Source: an uncultured Gammaproteobacteria bacterium
GTDB taxonomy: Bacteria; Patescibacteriota; Microgenomatia; Levybacterales; GWA1-39-11
Direction of reading: 5' to 3'
Assembly: GCA_964504535.1 (NCBI GenBank)
Contig: CAZDED010000005.1
Coordinates: forward strand, 9,411 to 73,410
DNA: 64,000 nt
Positions within the stretch are counted from its first letter, which is position 1; every line of letters starts with the position of its first letter. Below the pieces are notes generated by a model. It was not told where the DNA came from. It saw only the letters and a program-made list of their open reading frames with translations, and did no database searches. This document shows, piece after piece, positions 2,976 to 52,660 of this stretch. The position numbers and the translations under genes are program-made.

Positions 2976-5720
2976 TTATCTTCTCGCCGCCCGCATATTG
3001 GAGGCCCACAAGAGAATGTCTGCGATTGACACTATTATAAATGGAAGTACTTTAAACACCCCGAATTGACCTATAAATACGATTTCTATAGCCAGAACAA
3101 GAATTAAAATAGCCTCAAATAGAGTAGATAAAAGATATTCCGTATACCACTTAACATTATTAAGACTCATACGAGGAGGCTTGCCTGTTTGTTCTATTAG
3201 TAAAACAATCCTGTCATTAAGATCATTCTTTTTGACCTTGATTGATGTACCAGAAAACCCTTTTTTATTAGTAGTTATTCTGATATCAACAGCCTCATGA
3301 ATCTTTACTAAAAACTCACCATGCTCATTGCTTTTTGTATGACCCAGAACTTTTCCTGAGTTTGAAAGGAAATAGAGTAGGACTCCTGCTACCGGCTCAT
3401 CTGAACCTGAAGTTGAGATGTTCCCATGAACAAGAAATGTGTGTACATCCTTTCTAAAAGGAAGAAATATGTGATACAAGAGAAACGTGGGAAATAAAAT
3501 GACTGGCACCGACATCCTTTTTGAGAGAGAGATGGTAAGAAGAAAAGCAAGAAACGATAGTAATAAAAAGGCAACAAGCTCAAAAAATCGATAAGACGAG
3601 CGAAGAGTTTGTATTGCTTGCTCAGAAGACTGGAAAAAATCAAGTGCAGTTGATAGGTAATATTGGCCAAGTGTCAGGATGTTAAATGGCAGGGGGGTAA
3701 GTTCGACGGTGGGGTAGGAAGATGACATATCAGGGTCAAGAGTGAACTCGAGTGATTGTTCTTTGTATCCAAGAATTTGAATAACAGCTTTGTATTTCCC
3801 AGGAGGAAGAACTGTCAAAACCTTCCCATCAGGCTCAGAATACGCAGGATTTTTTATAGGTGTTACGGAAGATGATAATAATTCATAAATCTTGAGACGT
3901 TGATTGTAGAAGTAGAACGTAATTTTTGCGTGCTCGATAGCAGCTTTTGTTGCACTATTTATGACTCGTAAAGGTTGGGAGACTGTAACATCTGAAATTT
4001 TTTGTTCTGAGATGTTGCCATTGTAATCCTGGACTTGCAATATGAGCTCATATTCTCCAGGCCGTACTCCGGCATTTAGTCTTCCCACAAAATGTCCCGG
4101 ACTTATTTCAGATACTGTTACGGAGTCCGAACTCGTGGTTTCAGGTTCAAAACTATTTATTCCAAGTACATTCTTACTTCTGAGAATTGCTTTTACTGCC
4201 TTTACATTAGAAGGATCTTTTATCATTACCTTAAAGGAGTAATTGGAAGTGTTGGGAATGATAAAGATACCTATTGGACTTTGGAGACGCGAACCGTCGA
4301 CTAGCAATACATCTTGGCTTGTTACAATCAATGAATTTATGTCTACTTGGGGTGGGTTTGAGGTTTGAGCTGTATCTAACAGATAAAGATCTGAGGTGGC
4401 AGATATCCCATTTTGTGTGGTTGCCAAGACTTTGAAATAGTATCTTGTGCGAGGTTTGAGGTTGGTAAGAGTTACTAAATGATCTTTCCTAAAGTCGTTG
4501 ACAACCTGAGATTCATTTAAATTACTTATAGACGTACCGTATGAAATGTTAATTTTTGAAGCCAGACTGGTTGATATATAAATTGAAGCCTGATCTTGGC
4601 TAATTGTTCTGATATCAATTACATTTATCCGTAATGATGAGCTAGTGTTTGGTTTTGGTCCCAGTCCATCAGATTTTCCATCAGTTCTACCATCAGTTCT
4701 GCCATCCCCTCCAGAACTGCCACCATAGGAAATCGCAGATGTCGGGGCATTTGGATTTTGAAAAGTAGACGTTATTGTTGAATCTGCGGTTTGGGTTACT
4801 GGGCCTAAAACTCTCCCATTGACCGTAAAAGTCACTGGTAATGAGCCGGTGTAGGATGAGCTTGTTTTGAGTTTGAAAGTCACAGTTTGGTCAGTAGTAT
4901 TGCCCGGTATAGTAGTTATAGTCCAATCTATTTTTCTGTTAACCGTGTCAACCACTGCTGGAGTGTTGTTGTAAGCATTTGAACTACTACCTATTACATA
5001 ATCGAGAATTTCCTCAGTTGGCGTTCCATTCCCTTCAACGGTTCCCAAATCCCAGCTAGCCTCAACAGTAATTGCAGCTGGATAACTGAGCAAGTTTGCG
5101 TAAGTCAGAGTATATGTTAGAGTCGTTTCTGGGGCAAAAGTACCGTTTGCAGGGTCTGTGATGGTAAGATCAGCACTAAAATCCGTGGGATTTGCAGCGA
5201 CAGTTGCTGTGACGGATATGCTTTCACTGGTGACTATTGAAACCGCATAGGCATGATAATCAACGACCTGGCTCGAGTTATTCATGGTTCTAAGAACCCC
5301 TACATAGGTTCCAGTTGATGCTGGAGTAGTCAGAGTATTTGAAGAAGCGAAGTTAAAGCAATACTGCGTGCCTGTTGACAGGTCGTTTGAGGGAAAAGTG
5401 ACTGTTTGGCCTGAGACTGCTGTTGCTGTGCCTATTCCAGGCAATGGAGTAGCACCTGAGGGTAGATTTGTCGTTGCGATAGTCCAATTTGAAGCCGTAG
5501 AATTTACACTAAACCCAGTCGGAAATATAACTTGAATCGAATTTTCTACGCCATTTGTTGAAGGTGTAGCACAAATAAGACCTCCAGTCACTTTTGAGAT
5601 CGCCAATCTGTCTAGACGCACTAAGGTTTCCAAATCTCCAGCATAGGCTAGATGAGGCAGGAGAGGGGTAAGAATGGGTATAAGTACTACCACAAAAAGG
5701 ATACGGGCAATAATACGCAT
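2976..5720 (-). CDS. large (914 aa) cell-surface protein: signal peptide, Thr/Ser-rich Ig/FN3-like beta repeats, GDGRTDGRTDGKSDG low-complexity stretch, C-terminal multi-TM region
   Basis: N-terminal MRIIARILFVVVLIPILTPLLPHLAYA signal. Long T/S/N-rich repetitive beta-strand sequence. Several hydrophobic helices near the C-terminus. Confidence 0.6.
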   Translation of the reverse strand: MRIIARILFVVVLIPILTPLLPHLAYAGDLETLVRLDRLAISKVTGGLICATPSTNGVENSIQVIFPTGFSVNSTASNWTIATTNLPSGATPLPGIGTATAVSGQTVTFPSNDLSTGTQYCFNFASSNTLTTPASTGTYVGVLRTMNNSSQVVDYHAYAVSIVTSESISVTATVAANPTDFSADLTITDPANGTFAPETTLTYTLTYANLLSYPAAITVEASWDLGTVEGNGTPTEEILDYVIGSSSNAYNNTPAVVDTVNRKIDWTITTIPGNTTDQTVTFKLKTSSSYTGSLPVTFTVNGRVLGPVTQTADSTITSTFQNPNAPTSAISYGGSSGGDGRTDGRTDGKSDGLGPKPNTSSSLRINVIDIRTISQDQASIYISTSLASKINISYGTSISNLNESQVVNDFRKDHLVTLTNLKPRTRYYFKVLATTQNGISATSDLYLLDTAQTSNPPQVDINSLIVTSQDVLLVDGSRLQSPIGIFIIPNTSNYSFKVMIKDPSNVKAVKAILRSKNVLGINSFEPETTSSDSVTVSEISPGHFVGRLNAGVRPGEYELILQVQDYNGNISEQKISDVTVSQPLRVINSATKAAIEHAKITFYFYNQRLKIYELLSSSVTPIKNPAYSEPDGKVLTVLPPGKYKAVIQILGYKEQSLEFTLDPDMSSSYPTVELTPLPFNILTLGQYYLSTALDFFQSSEQAIQTLRSSYRFFELVAFLLLSFLAFLLTISLSKRMSVPVILFPTFLLYHIFLPFRKDVHTFLVHGNISTSGSDEPVAGVLLYFLSNSGKVLGHTKSNEHGEFLVKIHEAVDIRITTNKKGFSGTSIKVKKNDLNDRIVLLIEQTGKPPRMSLNNVKWYTEYLLSTLFEAILILVLAIEIVFIGQFGVFKVLPFIIVSIADILLWASNMRAARR

Positions 5721-11719: not shown

Positions 11720-12052
11720 ATTTGAGTATATTTATACCATCATAAGGTTGATTTGTCAATATATTATGCCACCATATAGTGTCAAAATATGGAAATAAAG
11801 CTGATATAAGGCTGTTTTTGTACAGGGATAGAAGATTTGAAAATATATATTATTGTCAAGAGTGTTGAACATTATATAACTATAAGATAAAATGTACCAC
11901 TGTTTTAAAGCAGTCAAGCAATAGCTGTTTGATGACCCTTGAAGCAGCGTACATTAACAATCTGCTGAAAAATACTCCTTTCGGAGACTTTTCCCATCAC
12001 AAATATGGTGGGCGAAATCTCCGACAAGGAGAATACAATGAGGAGGGGCGTT

Positions 12053-12820
12053 ATGTCCCAGGCATTTCCTATCCCTGCATCCATCCTTCAGCCCATTCCT
12101 GATCCCGTCCCGGAAGGCTACTTCCAGCGGTGGCAGGTCTACGTCGATGGGCAAGAGGCAACGCCTCAGCACATCACGATGGTGAATGTGGGGCAAGGAC
12201 TCCAGCTCGACTGGGGCTCTCACCCCGATGGCAAATGGTCGCAGTTCTGTTACCGCGAGAACCATGGAGGTGGCGTTGTCATCATTCCGCATGCAGTCAT
12301 GCCCGACGGGCGTGTCTACATCGGCGTCATCGACGCCAGGCGCCCTTTCCGCGATCCGCGGCCAGGGGCTGTCTTCATGGAGTTGCCGCGCGGTATGCGT
12401 GACAAGCTGGAATCGGCCACACAGGCCGCTCAGCGCGAAACGGAAGAAGAGACCGGCCATTCGGTTTCCGAAGGGTCGTATGTCGTGCTCGATGGTGATG
12501 GGGCCAACCCCAATTCCACCTTCTGGCTCACGTATGATCACAAGAACGAGACGCCGGATGGCGTCAGGTTCGTGACCGTCGAAGTCCCGGCCTCATCGCT
12601 CGTTCCCTCAAGGGACGGCGAAATGGTTTTGGACACCGCCGGACCCGTGGATTCCTTTGAAGGAATCGAGAAGTGTAGGTTCGTGCCCCTTACTATCCGT
12701 GAAACCGCGGGTGAAGGGGACATGTTCCTGCTCAGTGGAGCTTTCAAGCTCCAAGCGTACCTCATCGGACACTACGCCAACGTTTCCTTTCGGGATGGCG
12801 TGATGGTCGTGTCCAACTAG
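12053..12820 (+). CDS. Nudix hydrolase (ADP-ribose pyrophosphatase-like), encoded in GC-rich island A
   Basis: Nudix box GMRDKLESATQAAQRETEEETGH. High GC3 codon usage. AGGAGG sits 6 nt before the ATG at 12053; the ORF is open from 12005. Confidence 0.7.
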   Translation: MSQAFPIPASILQPIPDPVPEGYFQRWQVYVDGQEATPQHITMVNVGQGLQLDWGSHPDGKWSQFCYRENHGGGVVIIPHAVMPDGRVYIGVIDARRPFRDPRPGAVFMELPRGMRDKLESATQAAQRETEEETGHSVSEGSYVVLDGDGANPNSTFWLTYDHKNETPDGVRFVTVEVPASSLVPSRDGEMVLDTAGPVDSFEGIEKCRFVPLTIRETAGEGDMFLLSGAFKLQAYLIGHYANVSFRDGVMVVSN

Positions 12821-12838
12821 TCATTCAGCAGATCTCAG

Positions 12839-12860
12839 CCGGGTACCTCACGGTACCCGG
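12839..12860 (+). terminator. GC-rich hairpin ccgggtacc-tcac-ggtacccgg 18 nt after the island A stop codon (weak U-tract)
   Basis: Perfect 9-bp inverted repeat. Confidence 0.4.
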
Positions 12861-13106
12861 CACCATTTAAAACCTAATCAGCAGGGTTGGTAAATATTGG
12901 TACTACATCAATTCCAAGGATACAAGAAAGAGTTTGCCAGTTCCCATTCAAATATGTCTTATATATCGATATATCATGCAATAGTGGCTTATGTTTTTGA
13001 GTTAGTTGAAGCTTGCCGTGGACTAGTTGAAGGGTTAAAATAAGGAGTCTTAGGGTAGTAGCTTAGTGCGAATGAAATGAGCACCAAACTTACTTTTTGA
13101 CAATAT

Positions 13107-15178: not shown

Positions 15179-15378
15179 AAAAAGATAATAAGTTCAATAT
15201 TATTTACTCAAGCAATGTACGGTAGGCTTATACGAAGCTAATTTTTATCTTATAGTTTTGATATTCGTTTCAATTTCTGTTAAAATATATCTATGCAAAC
15301 ATGATAAATCTAAGCTCAAAAATGCTGCTTAGAGGTGTCAAATTTGCCATTTTTAGCACTTTTACATTGCGGAAATTA

Positions 15379-15426
15379 GTGGTTACCACCTTACACATAA
15401 GATGTTGTGTTTGAGGTGGTAACCAT
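15379..15426. repeat. long hairpin at the left edge of GC-rich island B (stem ggttaccacc/ggtggtaacc, 24-nt loop with an internal acaca/tgtgt repeat)
   Basis: Perfect 10-bp inverted repeat read directly. Confidence 0.5.
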
Positions 15427-15447
15427 AGAAAGAGGAGGTCACACCAA

Positions 15448-15833
15448 ATTGTAGGGGCAACCCTGAATCCTCAGCGTGTCGAGGAGATTTTTCTTGACTG
15501 CCTCTTCAAGCGTGGAGAGGACACGACCAGCCACATCAAGGCCGAGGGTATCACCTCGGTGGTCGGGTTTCATCCCAACCGCCTCGAAACCCATAAGGCA
15601 GAGATCAAGGCTCTCTTGGACGATTGCCTGATGAGTTCAAGCTGACAGGCGGCGGCGGAATGTCATTCCTGAAAGCCTGCAACGACAAGCACGGCAACCA
15701 ATGGACCGGTCTCCATTAGCACATGGAGCAACTGTTCCAACTCGGAATTGCCATCGGCAAGGTGCAAACCCTTCTCCCTCGGGAGATGTGGTCGGCACTA
15801 CCGGGTGCAGTGCCGTACTACGCAATCATGTAG
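15448..15833 (+). pseudogene. disrupted GC-rich ORF: three collinear segments (…HKAEIKALLDDC / …LTGGGGMSFLKACNDKHGNQWTGLH* / HMEQLFQLGIAIGKVQTLLPREMWSALPGAVPYYAIM*) separated by one frameshift (~15600-15645) and one in-frame TAG (15717)
   Basis: Protein-like, high-GC3 translation continues across the frameshift and stop. AGGAGG at 15433 has no ATG downstream. Confidence 0.5.
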
Positions 15834-15888
15834 TCAGCCCAACCCTCACATCGTCAAGACAACGGTTCACAACCAGAGAAAGGAAGCC

Positions 15889-16254
15889 ATGTCACTTACG
15901 ATCACCGCTGATTTCCTCCAACGATTTGTAGGAGGACAGTTGGAGTATGAGAACACAATGGGGCATTATCGGTTTCGCGGCGAGATCGAACGTGTCTGGA
16001 TAGAGGGCAGCAAAAATGCAACAATGTACGTCCTCTTGAAGTGGCTTGCCGAGATGGGTGAGGACTCCAGATGGCACGGTGCCGTTGACACCCTCGATTA
16101 CTCGGTCGGCCTCGCCGAAACGAGTTTCAGTGAGGCTGACGACAGCACTGTCCATTATGTCTCAACGCTCATTCAAGAAAAGGGGACCTTTTTCCCTCCA
16201 GAAGGAAGTAGACTGGATCCGTTGGAGGTGGAAGGGCTCCAGCTTCCCTCCTAA
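15889..16254 (+). CDS. hypothetical protein (121 aa) of GC-rich island B
   Basis: ATG preceded by AGGAAG. High GC3. The longer ORF from 15748 runs through the pseudogene tail. Confidence 0.55.
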   Translation: MSLTITADFLQRFVGGQLEYENTMGHYRFRGEIERVWIEGSKNATMYVLLKWLAEMGEDSRWHGAVDTLDYSVGLAETSFSEADDSTVHYVSTLIQEKGTFFPPEGSRLDPLEVEGLQLPS

Positions 16255-16293
16255 CAAGTTCCGCATCACGAATCACTCGGGCAAAAGTGCACT

Positions 16294-16327
16294 GGGCCGC
16301 GACACGTTCGCGGCCCTTTTGCTTTTG
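16294..16327 (+). terminator. Rho-independent terminator gggccgcg-acacgtt-cgcggccc followed by ttttgcttttg
   Basis: Perfect 8-bp GC stem plus a U-tract. Confidence 0.7.
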
Positions 16328-23011: not shown

Positions 23012-23085
23012 TCTCCATTTTTTAAGGGTACGAAATGATTTCTGCCTATTTTAGATATTTTTTTTCCAGCTTGATAGAACTTATG

Positions 23086-23117
23086 AAAAAGACCCCGAGC
23101 ATGCTCGGGGTCTTTGG
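23086..23117. terminator. bidirectional terminator: perfect 22-nt palindrome gaccccgagcatgctcggggtc flanked by AAAAA and TTTGG
   Basis: Sits between the convergent + gene (ends 23011) and the - strand island C operon (ends 23126). Confidence 0.7.
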
Positions 23118-23125
23118 AATTGAGA

Positions 23126-23425
23126 TTACTGGGACGAGTATGTCCCCTTGTCGTCAGCAAGCGTGACGCACGCCGTCTGTTTGATCCACTCACGGTCGTG
23201 ATGGGCGTACTGTTGGCATACCATTGTTGTGAGAATGGAACGATCACCTGGTACCTTGAAGTACATTCGGGCACGTTCTTCAAAGCTAGCAGTGACGCTT
23301 GCGATGATCTGCTCTCTCGTGACACCCCCAGGAAGGGGGTCAACCAGCGTGTAGTTGAGCGTGAGCATTCCAAGGTTCGTTGGCACGAGAACTTGGAGAA
23401 CTTCGCTTGGTGAGGTAGTGCTCAT
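23126..23425 (-). CDS. hypothetical protein (99 aa), second gene of GC-rich island C operon
   Basis: High GC3 on the minus strand. It starts 17 nt after the upstream stop. Confidence 0.5.
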   Translation of the reverse strand: MSTTSPSEVLQVLVPTNLGMLTLNYTLVDPLPGGVTREQIIASVTASFEERARMYFKVPGDRSILTTMVCQQYAHHDREWIKQTACVTLADDKGTYSSQ

Positions 23426-23442
23426 GACGTTACCATGAGAGG

Positions 23443-23796
23443 CTACCCTGCGGTTTCTTGAGGCATCGCCTCATTGGTCATCAGGTGTTCCTGGATGAGC
23501 TTCGCAAGTTCACGAAGGCCTTCTTCGGTCCGGGCAACAACTTCCACGCCAAGCCAGTTCAAGGACTTTGGGGTCCGTGCCAGCTTGGAGCGCGCCGCCA
23601 GGGGGAGGGCTCCTACGAGAGCCCAGGCTTCCTCCGAACGGAGGAGCTTGTGGCCAGTATGGGTCATGAAAGCGAATGCTTTCCAGTCCCGGTCGAAAGA
23701 TGAGGTGACGACGATGTGAGCAAGTCCAACGTCCTTCAGTTCCTTGGCGGCGAATTGCTTCCACCGCGTGTCTTGAAGGTCAATCCTTCTGATCAA
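23443..23796 (-). CDS. hypothetical protein (117 aa), first gene of GC-rich island C operon
   Basis: GC3 is about 70% on the minus strand. The overlapping + strand ORFs lack this bias. Confidence 0.5.
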   Translation of the reverse strand: MIRRIDLQDTRWKQFAAKELKDVGLAHIVVTSSFDRDWKAFAFMTHTGHKLLRSEEAWALVGALPLAARSKLARTPKSLNWLGVEVVARTEEGLRELAKLIQEHLMTNEAMPQETAG

Positions 23797-24118
23797 GCTA
23801 TGTCTCCGGTGTGAAGTGTCTGTTCCATTGCCGTTGGGGTACGAAACAGCTTCTCAAAGACATGTAAATCTTCAAAAAGCTATTTCGTACGGTAAGAAAT
23901 GAAGTAATCTCAATTGTTAATGTACATCATGAAATCCACGTAAGGCGCGCATGTGCCTCAAAGGATTTATGAGGAAAACTATTATACCTGCAATAGCCTT
24001 GATTGTGCAATTGCTAAGCATTGTGCTACTTGACTGTGAGTTTTGAGATACCGTACACTGAAATCAGTTTATAGTTGTAAAACTAGTAGCTGAGGACTAA
24101 TAACTCGTCTCTGCCCAT

Positions 24119-25468
24119 ATGATATTTCAAACTGTAGGTGAACTTGATGAAAATTTGCGAGAGGTATTCTCATTTGATGATGAGGATATAACGGTAAAGG
24201 ATGAAGCAAAGCTACGGGAATTTGGAATAGACCACCTTATATATACTGCTGTTCTTTCTGATGACCCCCAAGCACGACATCTCTGCCGCGTATATATCCG
24301 CAAATTAGCTAAAACCCTCGGTATTTTCCCCGCTTCAATTTTTCCTCTCTATCAAGCTTTTGGTTCAGGTGATGTAAAAGGATTCACCGTTCCAGCAATG
24401 AATATGAGGGCAATAACGTACGATGTTGCCCGGGAAGTATTCAAAAAATCAATCGTTCATGAGGCTAGTGCTTTTATTTTCGAGCTTTCCAGAAGCGAGG
24501 CAATTTACACAAAACAAAATCAGGATGAAGTGGCAATATGTGTTCTTGCAGCTGCGATAAAGGAAGGTTATGTCGGTCCCGTATTTCTGCAAGGAGATCA
24601 TTACCAATTTGACACAAAAAAATTCAAAGAATATCCTCAGGGACAAATTGATGAGATAGAGCTTGCAGTAAAAGATGCATTGACTGCGGGGTTTTACAAT
24701 ATTGACATCGACGCTTCTACGCTTGTTGATCTTTCCTTGCCGGAGAAAGCGGACCAACAGAAAAATAATTTCGAGATGACCGCAACGGTCACAAAATTTA
24801 TAAGAAGTATGCAGCCTATTGGTGTAACAGTTACAATTGGAGGAGAAATTGGGCATATCGGTGATGTGAATTCAGATGTAGAAGATTTTGAAGCATTTAT
24901 GGCAGGTTATCTTAGTGAATTAAATAAAAAAGATTTACAGATTATATCAAAAGTCAGCGTCCAGACAGGAACTTCACATGGAGGAACTCCCAATCCTGAC
25001 GGAACTTTAAAGGATGTAAGTGTGGATTTTGGTGTTCTGGAAAGTATCGGTAAAGTTGCACGTGATAAATATAAAATGGCAGGTCCTGTTCAACACGGAG
25101 CATCAACATTGCCACATGATATGTTTGGGAAATTTCCTGACGTTGGAACTGTTGAAATCCATCTAGCAACAGGATTTTTGACTATTGTATACGAAAATAT
25201 GTATGACTCAACTCGCAATAAATTATATGAGTATGTCAGGTCAAATTTTTCAGAAGAAAAAGAAGAAGGATGGACTGATGAGCAATTTATCTATAAATTA
25301 AGAAAGAAGGCTATCGGCCCTAATAAAAAAGATTTGTGGCTCATGCCGGAGGAAGAAAAAAATAATATCCGGGCAAAACTAGCAGAAGAACTGGAGAATC
25401 TATTTCAAAAACTTAATATTGTAGGTACTTCCCACACGGTAAGAAAATATATAGAAAATAAATCCTAA
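24119..25468 (+). CDS. class II aldolase family protein (fructose-bisphosphate aldolase-like, long form)
   Basis: Metal-ligand motifs LQGDHYQFD, GGEIGHIGD and QTGTSHGG parallel the class II FBA DHG, ELG and HG boxes. It lies next to pgk. Confidence 0.55.
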   Translation: MIFQTVGELDENLREVFSFDDEDITVKDEAKLREFGIDHLIYTAVLSDDPQARHLCRVYIRKLAKTLGIFPASIFPLYQAFGSGDVKGFTVPAMNMRAITYDVAREVFKKSIVHEASAFIFELSRSEAIYTKQNQDEVAICVLAAAIKEGYVGPVFLQGDHYQFDTKKFKEYPQGQIDEIELAVKDALTAGFYNIDIDASTLVDLSLPEKADQQKNNFEMTATVTKFIRSMQPIGVTVTIGGEIGHIGDVNSDVEDFEAFMAGYLSELNKKDLQIISKVSVQTGTSHGGTPNPDGTLKDVSVDFGVLESIGKVARDKYKMAGPVQHGASTLPHDMFGKFPDVGTVEIHLATGFLTIVYENMYDSTRNKLYEYVRSNFSEEKEEGWTDEQFIYKLRKKAIGPNKKDLWLMPEEEKNNIRAKLAEELENLFQKLNIVGTSHTVRKYIENKS

Positions 25469-29282: not shown

Positions 29283-29296
29283 ATTTTTAGAAAAGT

Positions 29297-29322
29297 CCCC
29301 GGGCGCACTACAGCGCCCGAGG
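29297..29322. terminator. GC hairpin cccgggcgc-actaca-gcgcccg(a)gg between convergent gdhA and the island D gene; U-tract present on the minus-strand side
   Basis: Read directly; 7 bp plus an extension. Confidence 0.55.
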
Positions 29323-29345
29323 ACAGAACCAGATTTAGCTGGTGG

Positions 29346-29600
29346 CTAAAGCCGAGTGGCGAGGCACGTTGTCGTACGTTGAACGCCACCGATCGTCTGG
29401 ATGCTGCAGGTGACGATTTGGCCGACGCTGTCCAGGTCGTTGTGCGTGATCTTCACGATCACATCGTACGGACCGGTCACGGTGTTGATCTCGGAAAGCT
29501 GTCCGCTGTGGCCGTTTTGGGCAATCTCGGAAAGGCGCGTAGCAACGGCCTTTGACTTGCCGACTTCCGTCTCGATCAGAACGTAAGCGTTAACCGCCAT
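29346..29600 (-). CDS. stand-alone Lrp/AsnC C-terminal ligand-binding (RAM) domain protein, GC-rich island D
   Basis: VNAYVLIETEVGKSKAVATRLSEI...TGPYDVIVKITHNDLDSVGQIV is the canonical AsnC_trans_reg fold sequence. GGAGG lies 8 nt before the ATG. Confidence 0.7.
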   Translation of the reverse strand: MAVNAYVLIETEVGKSKAVATRLSEIAQNGHSGQLSEINTVTGPYDVIVKITHNDLDSVGQIVTCSIQTIGGVQRTTTCLATRL

Positions 29601-29637
29601 GACTCAAGCCTCCTGTCCCGCGAAGCGGGAACGACTA

Positions 29638-29657
29638 TGCACGGAATTATTCCGTGC
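29638..29657. promoter_or_regulatory. perfect 19-bp palindrome gcacggaat-t-attccgtgc in the 5' region of the island D gene (candidate operator); a second palindrome ccgcgcactgcgcgg lies at 29730..29744
   Basis: Read directly; positioned 40-60 nt upstream of the minus-strand start. Confidence 0.35.
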
Positions 29658-29964
29658 GGTCTTTGTGGATTGTGTTTTATGCACCTCCAGCTTGATCTGT
29701 TGTTAATGCGAACAAAGACGTAAACTCTCCCGCGCACTGCGCGGAAGGCCACATCTCAATTCACTGATGGTAATTATAGGTCTATAGTATATAAAATGCA
29801 ATGATCTGTGATTAAAATTGCGTTCTTAAAAAAATAGAAAAAAAGAAACTATCCCTAAAATTAGGAAGGGATTTTTGAAAAAAACGCGAGTGTTCCTTCG
29901 GAACCAAAGGCTTCATCATCGGGGTGAGCAAAAACGGCACCAACGAACAGTTTCATGTTTTTAT

Positions 29965-35823: not shown

Positions 35824-36335
35824 AGGGTGGTGCCGGAAAGCAGGACTATCACCCCATGATGCCCTAGGGCATCAAGTGAGTCCCACGATGGGGACATCAA
35901 CTTTCCGGCGTTTAAAACACACTGCGTTATTGGGATCTTAGCGCCTCTGCGCCGTGGCTGTCGTCTTCAGCGGCTGATCGGGAACCCCGTCACCGTTGTA
36001 AGGCCTGAAGCCATTCGACCGCTGCTGCTTGCGATCGGCAGCTGCCTGTTCGCGGCTTGTTTCCGTTTCTTCTCCCGGTCCGAGTGATTCACGAAGAGAC
36101 CCTCATCGACCGACCGTTCTGGGCCCTCCGATGAGAGACGGTGGCGGTGGGAACGTATGTGCTAACGTTCCCATGCATCCGGTCTTGTAGGACCTTCCGC
36201 TTGTTGCGCCATGCCTTGAAGGAGTTGCTACTCCTCCACGTATCTTTCGCTTTGCTCAAGTACCTTTACCTCTCCTGGAGTGGATTGATCCCGTTTTACG
36301 CAGTGTAGTTTTTCAATGATCTTAAAAGCAGAACC
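35824..36335. other. GC-rich non-coding island E: no ORF of 60 aa or more in any frame, dense hairpins (candidate structured ncRNA or decayed foreign DNA)
   Basis: An 82-nt nested structure lies at 35825..35906 (gccggaaag...ctttccggc enclosing gatgcc-ctag-ggcatc and ccccat/atgggg). Further perfect stems: gggaacgt/acgttccc, ctcatcg/cgatgag, ggcagctgcc. Confidence 0.3.
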
Positions 36336-36430
36336 GCTCTTACGCTAAGTGCACTAGCACTAGCATAAGTTAAGAATCCGCTCTCGTGATGCAGATATTA
36401 TACACCTGCATAGTATAAATACTAGATTTC

Positions 36431-48587: not shown

Positions 48588-48767
48588 TTTTTCCCATTTT
48601 GTGCTATAATAACTTGTTTTTGCCCACCTTTTGGCGTGTTGCATGTCAAAATCAACGGGCTTAGCACGTTAACAAGTTGCTTGATATTTTTTAAGGTTGC
48701 GGCTTTCTGCTAATCTATGGTTGGTAGGAAGCCGTAACCTATATTCTGCGGCAAGGAGACAACAGGG

Positions 48768-49556
48768 ATGACCTACCTTGAGGCTATCACCACGACACTC
48801 AAAAGCGCAACATCTCGCTGGGCAGCGGTAGCGCCCGCTTTCCTCAAGCTGCCCGAAGGGCAGGTCGTCGTCGTCCACGTGCTCATCCGCGGCGAACAGT
48901 TCGTTGGACGAGTATCAATGCCGGCGGAGATCACCAGCCAGGCGCGTGCCATCCAGTCGCTTGGCATTCAGACCCTTGGGTTCTACCGCTTCGATGCGGG
49001 CCTCTGGGAGATGGCTTGGAAATTGCTCCAAGCCATCGACGAGTCCACGAAGAACGCACCCAAGCTGTTCGAAGAAGAGCTTCTCAAGAGGCTGCTTTCA
49101 GAGGGCGTAGTCAGGGATGACCTGATCACGCCGGTTCCCGACGATATGGAGGAGTTCTTCCTTCATCGCGTCGGGACGGAGCAGGCCATCGTTATGGCCT
49201 CCGCCGAGGAGGACATCTTCAACGTTCCCGAGAATCCGCTCGGCCGCCTCATCGCGCCCAAGGGGACAGTGGCCATGTATTGGCCAGCCATCGAGAAGGA
49301 GCGAGATGACGTGCGCAAAGCGCGCGAACAGGACCCCATCCTCGGCACCCCGTTTGTAGTAATCCATCACCACTCCTCGCAAGAGGAGACGGACGAGCGG
49401 ACTAGGAGCCGTTTCCGCCGCAACCGCGTCACCACCGAGACCGAGCCGGTTCCCGGAATGGGAGCATCGGAGAGCAAGGATCGTGGTGAGCCTTCCTACG
49501 TTCCGGCCGGTCTCGCAAGGACCCGCCGCGGTCAAGCCGGTCAAGACCTCGGCTAA
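48768..49556 (+). CDS. hypothetical protein (262 aa), GC-rich island F
   Basis: AAGGAG before the ATG. High GC3. Followed by a strong terminator. Confidence 0.6.
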   Translation: MTYLEAITTTLKSATSRWAAVAPAFLKLPEGQVVVVHVLIRGEQFVGRVSMPAEITSQARAIQSLGIQTLGFYRFDAGLWEMAWKLLQAIDESTKNAPKLFEEELLKRLLSEGVVRDDLITPVPDDMEEFFLHRVGTEQAIVMASAEEDIFNVPENPLGRLIAPKGTVAMYWPAIEKERDDVRKAREQDPILGTPFVVIHHHSSQEETDERTRSRFRRNRVTTETEPVPGMGASESKDRGEPSYVPAGLARTRRGQAGQDLG

Positions 49557-49585
49557 CAAGCCGACGCACATCAAGCAACTCCCGT

Positions 49586-49620
49586 CCCCCGATTGCAGAA
49601 ACGCAACCGGGGGACTTTTC
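49586..49620 (+). terminator. Rho-independent terminator cccccgattgc-agaaac-gcaaccggggg + acttttcc
   Basis: 11-bp stem with one mismatch, plus a U-tract. Confidence 0.7.
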
Positions 49621-50888: not shown

Positions 50889-52660
50889 AGAGAAGACACA
50901 GACCTATAGGCCATGCATTTTCAGATCATGTGTTTGAAGAACATTTGAAAAGAAAACGTGGATTTTCAGGTTCAAGACTTGAAGGGTTTGGTAGATTTAT
51001 TCCTCTTCTTATTCTTTCTCTTGTTTTTGCACTGCTTGCAATGCGTCTTTTTACATTACAGGTAGTGCGAGCTTCATATTACTCAAGATTATCTGATGCA
51101 AATAGAATACGTACGGAGTTAATAACGGCACCCCGTGGCATAATTTTTGACAGGAATGGGGAGGCATTGGTGCGCAACATTCCAGCATTTGGGACTATAA
51201 AAAATAATAAAGTAGAGTGGTTGGATAGGGACGTTGCTTTGAAGATGGCATCCAATGGAACAAGCGTTCTTGCAATTGTAAAAAGAGATTATTTATATAA
51301 AGACATTTTCTCACACGTCATAGGATATGTAGGACAAGTTAATAGTGATGAATTATTACTTCCTGATTTTAGTGATTATGGAATATCAGATTTTACGGGG
51401 AGGATGGGTCTTGAGGAACAGTATGAAAAATTTCTTCATGGGCAAAATGGAAAACAATTATATGAAGTGAATGCAAAAGGTGAGCGTATACGGCTTTTGG
51501 GTGAAGAGGAGGCAAGACAAGGAGCGGTTCTCAAAACCACTCTTGATGTCGGTCTTCAGAAGGCTGCAGCAAAAGCGATGGAAAAGATAGATAAGGGCGC
51601 TGTTGTAGTTACCGACCCGCGAGATGGATCTGTGATGGCTCTTTATTCAAAACCATCTTTTGATCCTAATTTATTTACAAGAGAACCATCATACAAACCT
51701 GAAGGAGCATATCAGAAGAAAGAAGATATTTTGCTTGATGATGAAAAATTTCCTCTTCTTGACCGAGTTATTGCGGGAGTATATCCACCCGGTTCCACTT
51801 TCAAAATTGTTACTTCCCTTGCTGCACTTTCATCAAATGCCATAAAGCCGGAGACAGAATTTGAAGACACCGGAATACTATCTATTGGAGGAAGTAATTT
51901 CGGTACGTGGAATTACTTGGAAACAGGAAGAAAAGAAGGATTTATGAATGTTGAGCGTGCGCTTGTCCGATCAAATGACATCTTCTTTTACGATGCAGCC
52001 ATGAAAACGGGGATTGATACATTGTCATCATGGTCAAAAAAATTAGGTCTTGGGGAAAAAACAGGTATTGATATACCGGGAGAAGTAAAAGGCACGGTTC
52101 CAAATCCTGCTTGGAAAAAAGAAGAGATTGGGGAGCAGTGGTATCTTGGTGACACAATCAACATGAGTATCGGACAAGGCTTTTTGGAAACGACACCAAT
52201 GCAGGTTAACCTATACACACAATTGGTTGCTAATGGAGGTGAGTTGATAAAACCACACTTGTTGTTTGGGGATGTAAGAATTATTAAAAAAGATTTTATA
52301 GCGAAAGAAAATATTGATGTTGTAAAAAATGGCATGAGGGGTGCTTGTGAGCCAGGTGGTACAGGATACCCACTATTTGGATTTAAAGTAAAAAATGAGC
52401 GATTGAAAATTGATGACCTTGATTATGTAAGAGATGCATCAGCAGGAGCTAATTTTGTACATGTCACAATGGGTTGTAAGACCGGAACTTCTGAGGCACA
52501 TGGAGACAATGCGAAGTCTCATGCATGGTTTACCGTATTTGCTCCTTTCTATAATCCGGAAATTGCAATAACGGTTCTTGCAGAAAATGCAGGACAGGGT
52601 AGTGATATTGCAGCCCCCGTTGCTCGCGATATCTTAAAGGAATATTTTGAGAAAAAATAG
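50885..52660 (+). CDS. mrdA: penicillin-binding protein 2 (class B transpeptidase)
   Basis: STFK, SxN (SNDIFF) and KTGT boxes. Confidence 0.85.
   Translation: MKRRHRPIGHAFSDHVFEEHLKRKRGFSGSRLEGFGRFIPLLILSLVFALLAMRLFTLQVVRASYYSRLSDANRIRTELITAPRGIIFDRNGEALVRNIPAFGTIKNNKVEWLDRDVALKMASNGTSVLAIVKRDYLYKDIFSHVIGYVGQVNSDELLLPDFSDYGISDFTGRMGLEEQYEKFLHGQNGKQLYEVNAKGERIRLLGEEEARQGAVLKTTLDVGLQKAAAKAMEKIDKGAVVVTDPRDGSVMALYSKPSFDPNLFTREPSYKPEGAYQKKEDILLDDEKFPLLDRVIAGVYPPGSTFKIVTSLAALSSNAIKPETEFEDTGILSIGGSNFGTWNYLETGRKEGFMNVERALVRSNDIFFYDAAMKTGIDTLSSWSKKLGLGEKTGIDIPGEVKGTVPNPAWKKEEIGEQWYLGDTINMSIGQGFLETTPMQVNLYTQLVANGGELIKPHLLFGDVRIIKKDFIAKENIDVVKNGMRGACEPGGTGYPLFGFKVKNERLKIDDLDYVRDASAGANFVHVTMGCKTGTSEAHGDNAKSHAWFTVFAPFYNPEIAITVLAENAGQGSDIAAPVARDILKEYFEKK

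Follow-up and report, generated by a model that had tools for sequence, protein, structure and literature searches.

Island C, one of six GC-rich islands (A to F) in the 64,000-nucleotide (nt) stretch of DNA that we refer to as the window, is on balance probably a real accessory operon that Candidatus Levybacteria (Candidate Phyla Radiation (CPR)/Patescibacteria) have inherited vertically and express as a compact, end-paired mRNA. It carries two small genes on the minus strand, gene 1 (117 amino acids (aa)) and gene 2 (99 aa), with a gap of 17 nt in the open reading frame (ORF) list. Complementarity, covariation and thermodynamic prediction support a helix between the two ends of the message, and in the model the base-paired ends close the coding region into a panhandle. 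Specifically, transcription would run from a conserved sigma-70-type promoter (24010-23981) to the terminator (23115-23086), yielding an mRNA of ~889 nt in which leader positions 23915-23903, directly after the motif GTACATTAACAAT, would pair with 23130-23118 at the end of gene 2. The compact end-paired fold may give a long-lived message, or it may mark the message for processing, for example through attack on the closing helix by an RNase specific for double strands. A dual role of the transcript, as a structured RNA that also codes for protein, is fairly likely to be part of the best explanation.

Two genes in a conserved non-coding frame

Gene 1 (23443-23796, minus strand) starts with TTG and gene 2 (23126-23425, minus strand) with ATG; both encode orphan proteins, the first of alpha/beta type. 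Compared with L001, the sister lineage of the window (L001, L009, L021 and similar labels denote the related lineages or contigs compared), gene 1 has 6 synonymous and 3 non-synonymous codon changes, with 1, 2 and 6 substitutions at codon positions 1, 2 and 3, and gene 2 has 10 and 4, with 2, 2 and 10. Third codon positions thus take 16 of the 23 substitutions, and because the changes from the sister lineage fall mainly there, the comparison argues that both are real genes under purifying selection. Both reading frames also stay open in orthologues at 36-58% amino-acid identity, including a 58%-identical gene 2 orthologue in L021/L012. The junctions of the island with fba and with a SurA-like gene are identical in at least eight independent assemblies (four at 99.9% identity and four from the sister lineage), and therefore island C is not an assembly artefact.

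The GC content per 100 nt is 0.49-0.66 over 23100-23850 and 0.30-0.42 in the flanks, so that ~750 bp at 54% GC stand in a genome of 39% GC. An earlier first-pass annotation of this DNA had described a two-gene minus-strand operon with a 17-nt gap, closed by a palindromic terminator, and the ORFs, coordinates and palindrome agree with it. Its dismissal of the overlapping plus-strand ORFs as artefacts is likewise borne out by the third-position bias and the conserved minus-strand frames. The GC content at third codon positions (GC3), which it had put at ~70%, is indeed high, but somewhat lower than that figure (0.66 for gene 1 and 0.60 for gene 2).

The gap between the genes holds a relic ORF of four codons, ATGGTAACGTCATGA (M-V-T-S-stop; 23422-23436, minus strand), recognized by comparison with L021/L012, whose TGA stop overlaps the ATG of gene 2. 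In L021/L012 an intact middle gene, gX, ends in ...K-V-T-A-stop and overlaps the start of gene 2. The relic (ATG-GTA-ACG-TCA-TGA) equals the start codon of gX joined in frame to its last codons. Judging from this comparison, the 17-nt spacer of the window is the remnant of a lost 80-aa gX, which is intact in L021.

The non-coding frame around the genes is 71-85% identical at the nt level between the window and L021, compared with 45-55% for gene 1. In eight aligned lineages the order is conserved: promoter, 5' hairpin, motif ACATTAACAA, AATTGAGATCAC-like arm, long hairpin and ribosome-binding site (RBS), and further on a GGGAC/GTCCC hairpin, GTGATCTCAATT, a spacer and the terminator. All of the following elements lie on the minus strand. 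The promoter scan predicts a -35 element TTGCAC (24005-24010) and an extended -10 element GGTATAAT (23981-23988), an arrangement that is kept as TTGCA/TTGAA -17- (G/T)GTATAAT in the eight lineages, with a predicted transcription start at ~23974. The leader begins with hairpin HP1 (23927-23972; core GGCACATGCGCGCC at 23944-23957), which is present in both the minimum free energy (MFE) and centroid folds; all lineages have a hairpin at this position with an altered stem, for example TTGGC...GCCAA in L023/L024. HP1 is followed by the single-stranded motif GTACATTAACAAT (23913-23925), immediately 5' of the long-range helix, and by the 5' arm AATTGAGATTACT (23903-23915), a perfect 13-nt complement of 23118-23130. 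Between this arm and the RBS lies hairpin HP2 (23839-23890), an inverted repeat with a 22-bp imperfect stem in the MFE fold, and in other lineages a hairpin of different sequence occupies the same place. The RBS of gene 1, read from the sequence as GGAGA (23803-23807), is 7 nt upstream of the TTG start, and GGGAG and the TTG start are conserved in L001, L009 and L021.

At the other end, hairpin HP3 (GGGAC-ATACTC-GTCCC, 23131-23146, in the MFE fold) abuts the 3' arm and is kept as GGGAC...GTCCC in L001, L009 and L021, despite a different upstream gene in L009. The 3' arm AGTAATCTCAATT (23118-23130; aligned complement GTGATCTCAATT) includes the TAA stop codon of gene 2. The intrinsic terminator (23086-23115), found in the MFE fold and as an inverted repeat, has a GC-rich 12-bp stem that closes a 4-nt loop and is followed by UUUUU; in L001, L009 and L021 an A-T pair of this stem has become G-C by compensatory change. 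It contains the palindrome gaccccgagcatgctcggggtc at 23093-23114, extending to 14+14 nt at 23088-23115. The palindrome, 22 nt long, is perfect, as the first-pass annotation had noted; TTTTT follows it on the minus strand, where it is a canonical intrinsic terminator, and just TTT on the plus strand. The promoter scan, which is weak evidence, found no plus-strand promoter-like site in 23700-23980, and Rfam searches at gathering and E-value thresholds found no family in island C or island E. We rejected a 6-codon leader ORF (MMYINN) overlapping the 5' arm, which is absent as a conserved ORF in L009 and L025.

Predicted end pairing and structure of the message

The two arms (23903-23915 and 23118-23130) form a perfect 13-nt inverted repeat in the window. 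When the arms of the eight lineages are aligned, 89.4% of cells pair and compensatory (double) changes occur in 4 of the 13 pairs; the covariation score was reached by none of 500 shuffles, and slid-register controls pair in 14-42% of cells. For example, one pair is T-A in the window and C-G in L001, L009 and L025, and a G-C pair is replaced by U-A in L024 and L028, together with a sense-strand U.G wobble. The L028 arms differ further, either at four compensated positions or by a matched 3-nt insertion. The complete arm-arm helix is present in the MFE fold of all eight predicted transcripts (889-1324 nt, with differing coding content), and also in the centroid fold of the window transcript. 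In partition-function calculations, the probability that the 5' arm is unpaired is 0.03 in the window and 0.01-0.05 in full-length transcripts, compared with 0.61-0.75 in 3'-truncated ones. Averaged over the region from the Shine-Dalgarno sequence to the start codon of gene 1, the unpaired probability in four lineages is 0.43-0.62 whether the 3' arm is present or removed, and the accessibility of the GGAGA site is ~0.45-0.6 in either case. Since predicted access to the RBS is the same in both cases, the helix would act in stability or processing rather than in translational masking.

Processing stems for RNase III, which bracket rRNA genes and some phage and operon transcripts, are formed by inverted repeats hundreds to thousands of nt apart. 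The island resembles them in that distant repeats pair around a whole functional RNA and that complementarity is conserved and sequence is not. It differs in that its helix is 10-13 bp, stacked directly on HP3, and encloses a protein-coding message; cleavage here would be hypothetical.

The coding region itself is predicted to be unusually structured. Against dinucleotide shuffles, the fold of the whole transcript has a z-score of -10.65 and its coding part -4.41, compared with -0.70 for Era. Using synonymous-codon shuffles, in which protein sequence and codon usage are unchanged, we obtained -3.85 for gene 1 and -2.46 for gene 2. Under the same shuffles z is at or below -1.8 in 12 of 19 cassette genes from the window and related loci, and in none of 17 native gene segments. 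Synonymous sites in these models seem to be arranged to pair. Because the GC-enriched coding region folds far better than its synonymous permutations, the results support the view that its high GC content is kept by selection on the RNA and is no relic of foreign origin.

The composition of the relatives points the same way. In every lineage the cassette genes have a GC content of 0.53-0.61 and a GC3 of 0.58-0.66 (neighbouring fba, ~0.30), and the orthologues have 54-56% GC. The rate of synonymous substitution (dS) of fba between lineages runs from 1.6 to saturated. As the orthologues are still GC-rich though the synonymous sites of fba are saturated, the GC content of the cassette is maintained, not left over from a transfer. 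The non-synonymous rate (dN) is 0.31-0.65 for gene 1 compared with 0.07-0.10 for fba, and dN/dS is 0.1-0.5, so that gene 1 evolves fast yet under purifying selection (dN/dS <1). The GC-rich islands of the window appear to be shaped by mRNA-structure selection, with GC-rich synonymous sites held against a strong AT mutational background over saturated divergence.

Several points weigh against an end-paired message under RNA selection. Promoter, helix and both ends of the transcript are all predicted. MFE folding is not reliable for RNAs as long as 1 kb, and ribosomes in the course of translation would open up coding-region structure. The covariation is thin, coming from eight related sequences with ~4-5 independent events; the L021 arms have one mismatch, leaving 10 bp, and the L023 arms are mismatched, but L023 is a mosaic or chimeric contig. 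Removal of the 3' arm leaves the predicted accessibility of the gene 1 RBS unchanged. Some cassette genes are not over-structured (z = -0.06 for L009 gene 1 and +0.5 for island D), and biased gene conversion, if the locus recombines, is another conceivable source of the high GC content.

The six GC-rich islands of the window

All six islands have the same layout and carry unrelated cargo. Island A (11949-12861, plus strand) has the motif GTACATTAACAAT at 11949-61, arms at 11960-69 and 12824-33 (10 bp) and a NUDIX-domain protein of 271 aa. Island F (48668-49615, plus strand) has the motif GTTAACAAG at 48668-76, arms at 48675-85 and 49570-80 (11 bp) and a 262-aa protein without family assignment. 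On the minus strand, island C has its motif GTACATTAACAAT at 23913-25 and arms at 23903-15 and 23118-30 (13 bp) around gene 1 and gene 2; island D (29295-29780) has GCATTAACAAC at 29699-709, arms at 29687-99 and 29330-42 (5+6 bp) and an 84-aa protein with an AsnC-like (AsnC-type ligand-binding) domain; and island E (35914-36405) has ATCATTGAAAAA at 36309-20, arms at 36298-311 and 35914-27 (9 bp) and no long ORF. Island B (15368-16316, plus strand), with ACATT as its only motif, arms at 15368-74 and 16259-65 (7 bp) and cargo without family assignment, is the weakest case: its terminator stem lies ~28 nt past the 3' arm, and MFE was the only test of its helix. An exact copy of the 13-mer GTACATTAACAAT is found just twice in the window, at the same position of islands A and C, and GCATTAACAAC and GTTAACAAG are variants of it at the equivalent place.

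The 5' arms begin 39-80 nt past the assumed start of each island's transcript. The 3' arm follows just past the stop codon, and in islands A, C, D, E and F it is 3-6 nt ahead of a strong terminator. The arms pair with a probability of ~1.0 in islands A, D, E and F, and the coding regions of islands A, B and F are over-structured (z = -2.6 to -4.8). Orthologues of island D in L029 and L025 have a GC3 of 0.67-0.73, and compensatory substitutions together with a matched 2-nt insertion preserve their helix. Because the arm sequence differs from cassette to cassette, what is conserved is complementarity, which favours RNA pairing over recognition by one recombinase. An 11-nt repeat near island A (11715/12948) was rejected as a chance match, the true arms being those at 11960-69 and 12824-33.

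Island E and island B each have a peculiarity of their own. The former (35830-36310) has a promoter, arms and a complex terminator, with no ORF >56 aa and no Rfam match; it may have decayed from a full cassette, encode a small protein or be a non-coding RNA. The predicted structure of island B pairs the RBS GAGGAG (15433-15438) with CUCCUA (16247-16252), which overlaps the stop codon of the cargo gene; unlike in island C, this could possibly be an anti-Shine-Dalgarno sequence at the 3' end.

Since all six islands use the layout with unrelated cargo, the order of promoter, hairpin, motif, arm, cargo, arm and terminator is thus a lineage-specific expression format and not the signature of a single function. 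A strict automated scan for motif, arms and terminator recovers only islands C and F and gives ~0.8 false matches per shuffled window, and it is unfit for counting. We tentatively suggest, at less than even confidence, that the islands belong to a family of self-contained 'panhandle-mRNA' cassettes spread over the genome and to date seen in Levybacteria only, representing a new expression format or a post-transcriptional regulon. Each cassette would have a promoter of its own, share the leader motif ACATTAACAA with the others and carry complementary ends specific to itself plus a strong terminator, with coding GC and structure under RNA selection; the cargo of island C would be a fast-evolving module of two proteins. 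Such cassettes could possibly serve to store very stable messages in a slow-growing episymbiont, or the motif and helix could be the place where a dedicated RNase or an RNA-binding protein processes them; RNA export would be the most speculative purpose. To our knowledge and in the literature searches made, no multi-locus family of such cassettes that share a leader motif and keep their coding regions GC-rich has been reported. If the end-paired format with its motif is true, it would be a testable whole-message RNA architecture controlling unrelated genes. The combination of motif, arm and terminator would then offer a search handle for cassettes in Patescibacteria, and island-based predictors of horizontal gene transfer would call for caution.

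Distribution, proteins and alternative explanations

Among species-representative genomes, the relatives of fba belong to Candidatus Levyibacteriota and other Microgenomates. Several third-party annotation (TPA) records of metagenome-assembled genomes (MAGs), L021, L022, L024, L026-L029, L032, L035 and L037, are titled 'uncultured Gammaproteobacteria bacterium' and carry loci of Levybacteria/Microgenomates type; the title looks like a placeholder or an error. Island C stands in the gene order UppS - Era - SurA-like / cassette / fba - PGK, with gene 1 divergent from fba, and this synteny recurs in L009/L010, L011-L021, L025, L023/24/28 and L029. A phmmer search of 1.84 billion representative proteins returned three relatives of gene 1 (57% identity, 36% identity and a 39-aa fragment), and the contigs of the two full-length ones come from other Levybacteria and have the gene at the same syntenic site, flanked by fba and the SurA-like gene. 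Orthologues of gene 1 at the same locus are 97, 57 and 36% identical. In a word-indexed search of 5.8 billion clustered proteins, the island proteins matched near-identical copies only, and in both collections no homologue was found outside the Levybacteria locus. A gene 1 profile scan of the genome collection gave no matches, a metagenome scan with the 3'-frame pattern gave one further copy (L009 type) and chance matches, and the viral contigs and plasmids searched contained no relative of island C.

The content of the cassette varies between relatives. The pair of gene 1 and gene 2, on whose conservation elsewhere the first-pass annotation had made its reading depend, is kept in L001 and, with gX between them, in L021/L011-L020, so that the refuting outcome named there did not occur. 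The L011-L021 operon reads gene 1 - gX (80 aa) - gene 2 (91 aa, 58% identical to gene 2 of the window), and that of L009/L010 has, after gene 1, a 166-aa gene in place of gene 2 whose N-terminal half matches gX. The more distant Levybacteria L023, L024, L025, L028 and L029 have other small GC-rich genes at the same site, and the last gene of some of these variants (L023/24/28 'c', L025) encodes a small single-pass membrane protein. The cassette is absent from L022, L026 and L027. Because these three related genomes go without it, the operon is dispensable.

Database searches say little about what the two proteins do. The first-pass annotation had recognized no family for either of them, and family and fold searches came back equally empty: Pfam, NCBIfam, PADLOC and PHROGs gave no useful match, PDB sequence and profile searches gave none, and Foldseek of both AlphaFold2 (AF2) models against PDB and BFVD returned nothing at E <= 0.001. 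The AF2 model of gene 1, built on a 4-sequence alignment, has a predicted local distance difference test score (pLDDT) of 75.6, with one of five models confident, and shows three helices and six strands. Its top Foldseek matches in PDB (6k4y_M) and BFVD (four MotA or unnamed entries) are to the MotA C-terminal domain, below significance: E is 0.01-0.03 (against a mark of 0.001), the template modelling (TM) score 0.46-0.53 over ~100 columns and identity 10-14%. DUF1801/YdhG reaches comparable Foldseek scores. The likeness to the 'double-wing' DNA-binding C-terminal domain of phage T4 MotA is thus a lead and no assignment, given the E-values above 0.001, the low identity, the lone confident model and the rival DUF1801/YdhG scores. 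Gene 1 may encode a nucleic-acid-binding alpha/beta domain, a weak lead from the model. For gene 2 the model is of low quality (pLDDT 61.7) and without a fold match, and neither protein has a hydrophobic segment. Comparisons by HMM, BLAST and hhalign supported neither gX and gene 2 as paralogues nor homology of the first genes across all cassette variants. By the same methods the L023-type first gene (150 aa) shows no relation to gene 1; the first gene of L025 (132 aa) matches it marginally (E ~0.004-0.05) and may encode a remote homologue. As lineage-specific, dispensable and fast-evolving partners, gene 1 and gene 2 are candidates for toxicity or nucleic-acid binding.

The first-pass annotation had proposed a toxin-antitoxin (TA)-like or selfish module. 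This is unsupported, with no TA or defence family match, a partner gene that varies and a frame shared with NUDIX and AsnC-like cargo; sequence analysis neither shows nor excludes a TA role, which we consider unlikely. In an addiction or defence pair, the toxin would be gene 2 and its DNA-binding antitoxin or regulator gene 1, or the roles would be exchanged. Like type II TA operons, island C has two small, close, co-transcribed genes that are translationally coupled, and its locus is dispensable and fast-evolving, with a gene content that varies as in conflict systems; the best fold matches of gene 1, at weak scores, are to the DNA-binding domain of phage MotA. Unlike such operons, it has no match at a useful score in Pfam, NCBIfam, PADLOC or PHROGs and no sign of mobility, being found on no plasmid or phage and at one fixed chromosomal site as opposed to the scattered distribution of TA systems, and the partner of gene 1 differs in some lineages (an extra 80-aa gX in L021, a 166-aa gene in L009). 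Alternatively, the module could be hok-like and RNA-controlled, its end pairing keeping a harmful message inert. Pairing of the 5' and 3' ends (tac/fbi) is a hallmark of hok-type toxin mRNAs (PMC9841398), and the membrane proteins that end some cassette variants (L023/24/28 'c', L025) would fit. As in hok/sok-type mRNAs and H. pylori aapA/IsoA, a covarying helix links the 5' untranslated region to the extreme 3' region before the terminator, in a compact RNA from a small accessory locus. The cargo here, however, consists of two proteins, 117 and 99 aa long, that are soluble and not hydrophobic, in place of a ~50-aa hydrophobic peptide; no antisense RNA gene was found, and the promoter scan, itself weak evidence, shows no antisense promoter in the leader; access to the RBS is independent of the pairing, which does not sequester it; and there are six cassettes with unrelated cargo, the same RNA frame carrying NUDIX-domain and AsnC-like proteins.

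Explanations at the DNA level fare no better. The inverted repeats could be recombinase sites, at which a 798-bp segment flips as an inverton (an ON/OFF phase switch) or a cassette with terminal inverted repeats transposes. The repeats do enclose the whole coding segment, leaving the promoter beyond one of them and the terminator beyond the other, and coordinated arm changes such as the apparent matched 3-nt insertion in L028 could come from gene conversion during recombination. Such a switch is nevertheless improbable: in all of at least 12 independent assembled contigs with flanks the segment has one orientation relative to fba, and the six cassettes have six arm sequences, which fits base pairing and not recognition by a single enzyme. 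The sense-strand G.U wobble, the position fixed across species and the lack of target-site duplications also count against it, and the neighbour genes (UppS, Era, SurA-like, fba and PGK) include no recombinase, integrase or transposase. Integron gene cassettes are similar in having a conserved promoter-proximal region followed by short variable cassettes, mostly of single function, that end in an inverted-repeat element, with content that varies between close relatives. They differ in that the arms and motif here contain no attI/attC cores (GTTRRRY / RYYYAAC), each island has its own promoter, and the cassette stands alone at a fixed site between housekeeping genes; no integrase is found among the ORFs adjoining island C, the neighbours to which that search was limited.

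Structured RNAs classically stand out as GC-rich islands in AT-rich genomes, and island C could accordingly be read as a large structured non-coding RNA whose ORFs are by-products of composition. The very strong excess of predicted structure, the covarying closing helix, the GC-rich setting in an AT-rich genome and island E, with the frame and no long ORF, would all suit this reading, which we hold to be exceedingly improbable in view of the third-position substitutions in both frames, the frames open at 36-58% identity, dN/dS <1, the conserved start codons and RBS and the lack of an Rfam match. A recent foreign island from a GC-rich donor such as an actinobacterium, still undrifted in composition, is very improbable too. 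It would account for the GC content (54% vs 39% in the genome; GC3 0.60-0.66 vs ~0.30), the orphan proteins and the absence of the island from some relatives, and gene transfer is common in Patescibacteria (PMC12455944). Against it, no homologue exists outside the Levybacteria locus in the 1.84 billion representative and 5.8 billion clustered proteins, same-site orthologues are equally GC-rich across lineages with saturated synonymous sites, and the AT-rich, host-like promoter and leader are a conserved, integral part of the unit. No integrase genes or mobile-element flanking repeats accompany it, and no tRNA gene lies within 10 kb of island C. The word 'foreign' in the first-pass annotation is contradicted by relatives confined to the same Levybacteria site, by GC held across saturated divergence and by an AT-rich promoter, leader and 3' frame conserved in the host, leaving its 'foreign selfish module' partly supported. 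Compositional islands in small genomes are routinely dismissed as horizontal transfer; here one appears native and conserved in a CPR bacterium.

Several further observations concern the site itself. In other lineages the cassette is followed by genes for membrane-anchored surface proteins (L003 940-1219; L009 10951-12109; L021 1524-3725; L022 2873-4858), including dockerin-domain proteins starting MV(Y/H)EI.... The window lineage has lost these surface-protein genes, and its terminator therefore faces the SurA-like gene directly. A 10-nt direct repeat, GGGTACGAAA, occurs at 23026-23035, past the terminator and adjoining the end of the SurA-like gene, and at 23837-23846, within the HP2 stem. 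It is accompanied by an 18-nt inverted match at 78% (23019-23036 vs 23882-23899), and it could be a scar of the dockerin-type gene deletion, or chance. In L026, ~5 tandem copies of a ~21-22-nt unit (GCTAAGCAAAGCTTGGCTAC...) occupy the usual place of the cassette upstream of fba (~4805-4930). Between the window and L001, identity over 23086-24500 is 96-98% from mid-fba through the cassette and 81-90% deeper into fba. This step in the alignment points to a recent recombination tract over the cassette and the adjacent half of fba, and we therefore rejected the notion that the island is more conserved than its flank. The L023 contig (JAYRRJ010000027.1) is a mosaic, ~90% L024-like to ~70 nt into the first cassette gene and then 97-100% L028-like for >2 kb, either through genuine recombination between species or because the MAG contig is chimeric. 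As the mosaic or chimera runs for >2 kb, it was rejected as a cassette-specific swap.

Elsewhere in the window, ARAGORN calls a 93-nt tRNA-Phe at 50899-50991 with its anticodon at position 38, on which the Rfam tRNA model is silent at the gathering score; the call may be intron-containing, aberrant or false. Among the related contigs, L009 (2131-9608) and L021 (8859-10187) have two diverged copies of class II fructose-bisphosphate aldolase (~45% identical), and L009 carries two PGK genes, FBPase and glutamate dehydrogenase in one cluster.

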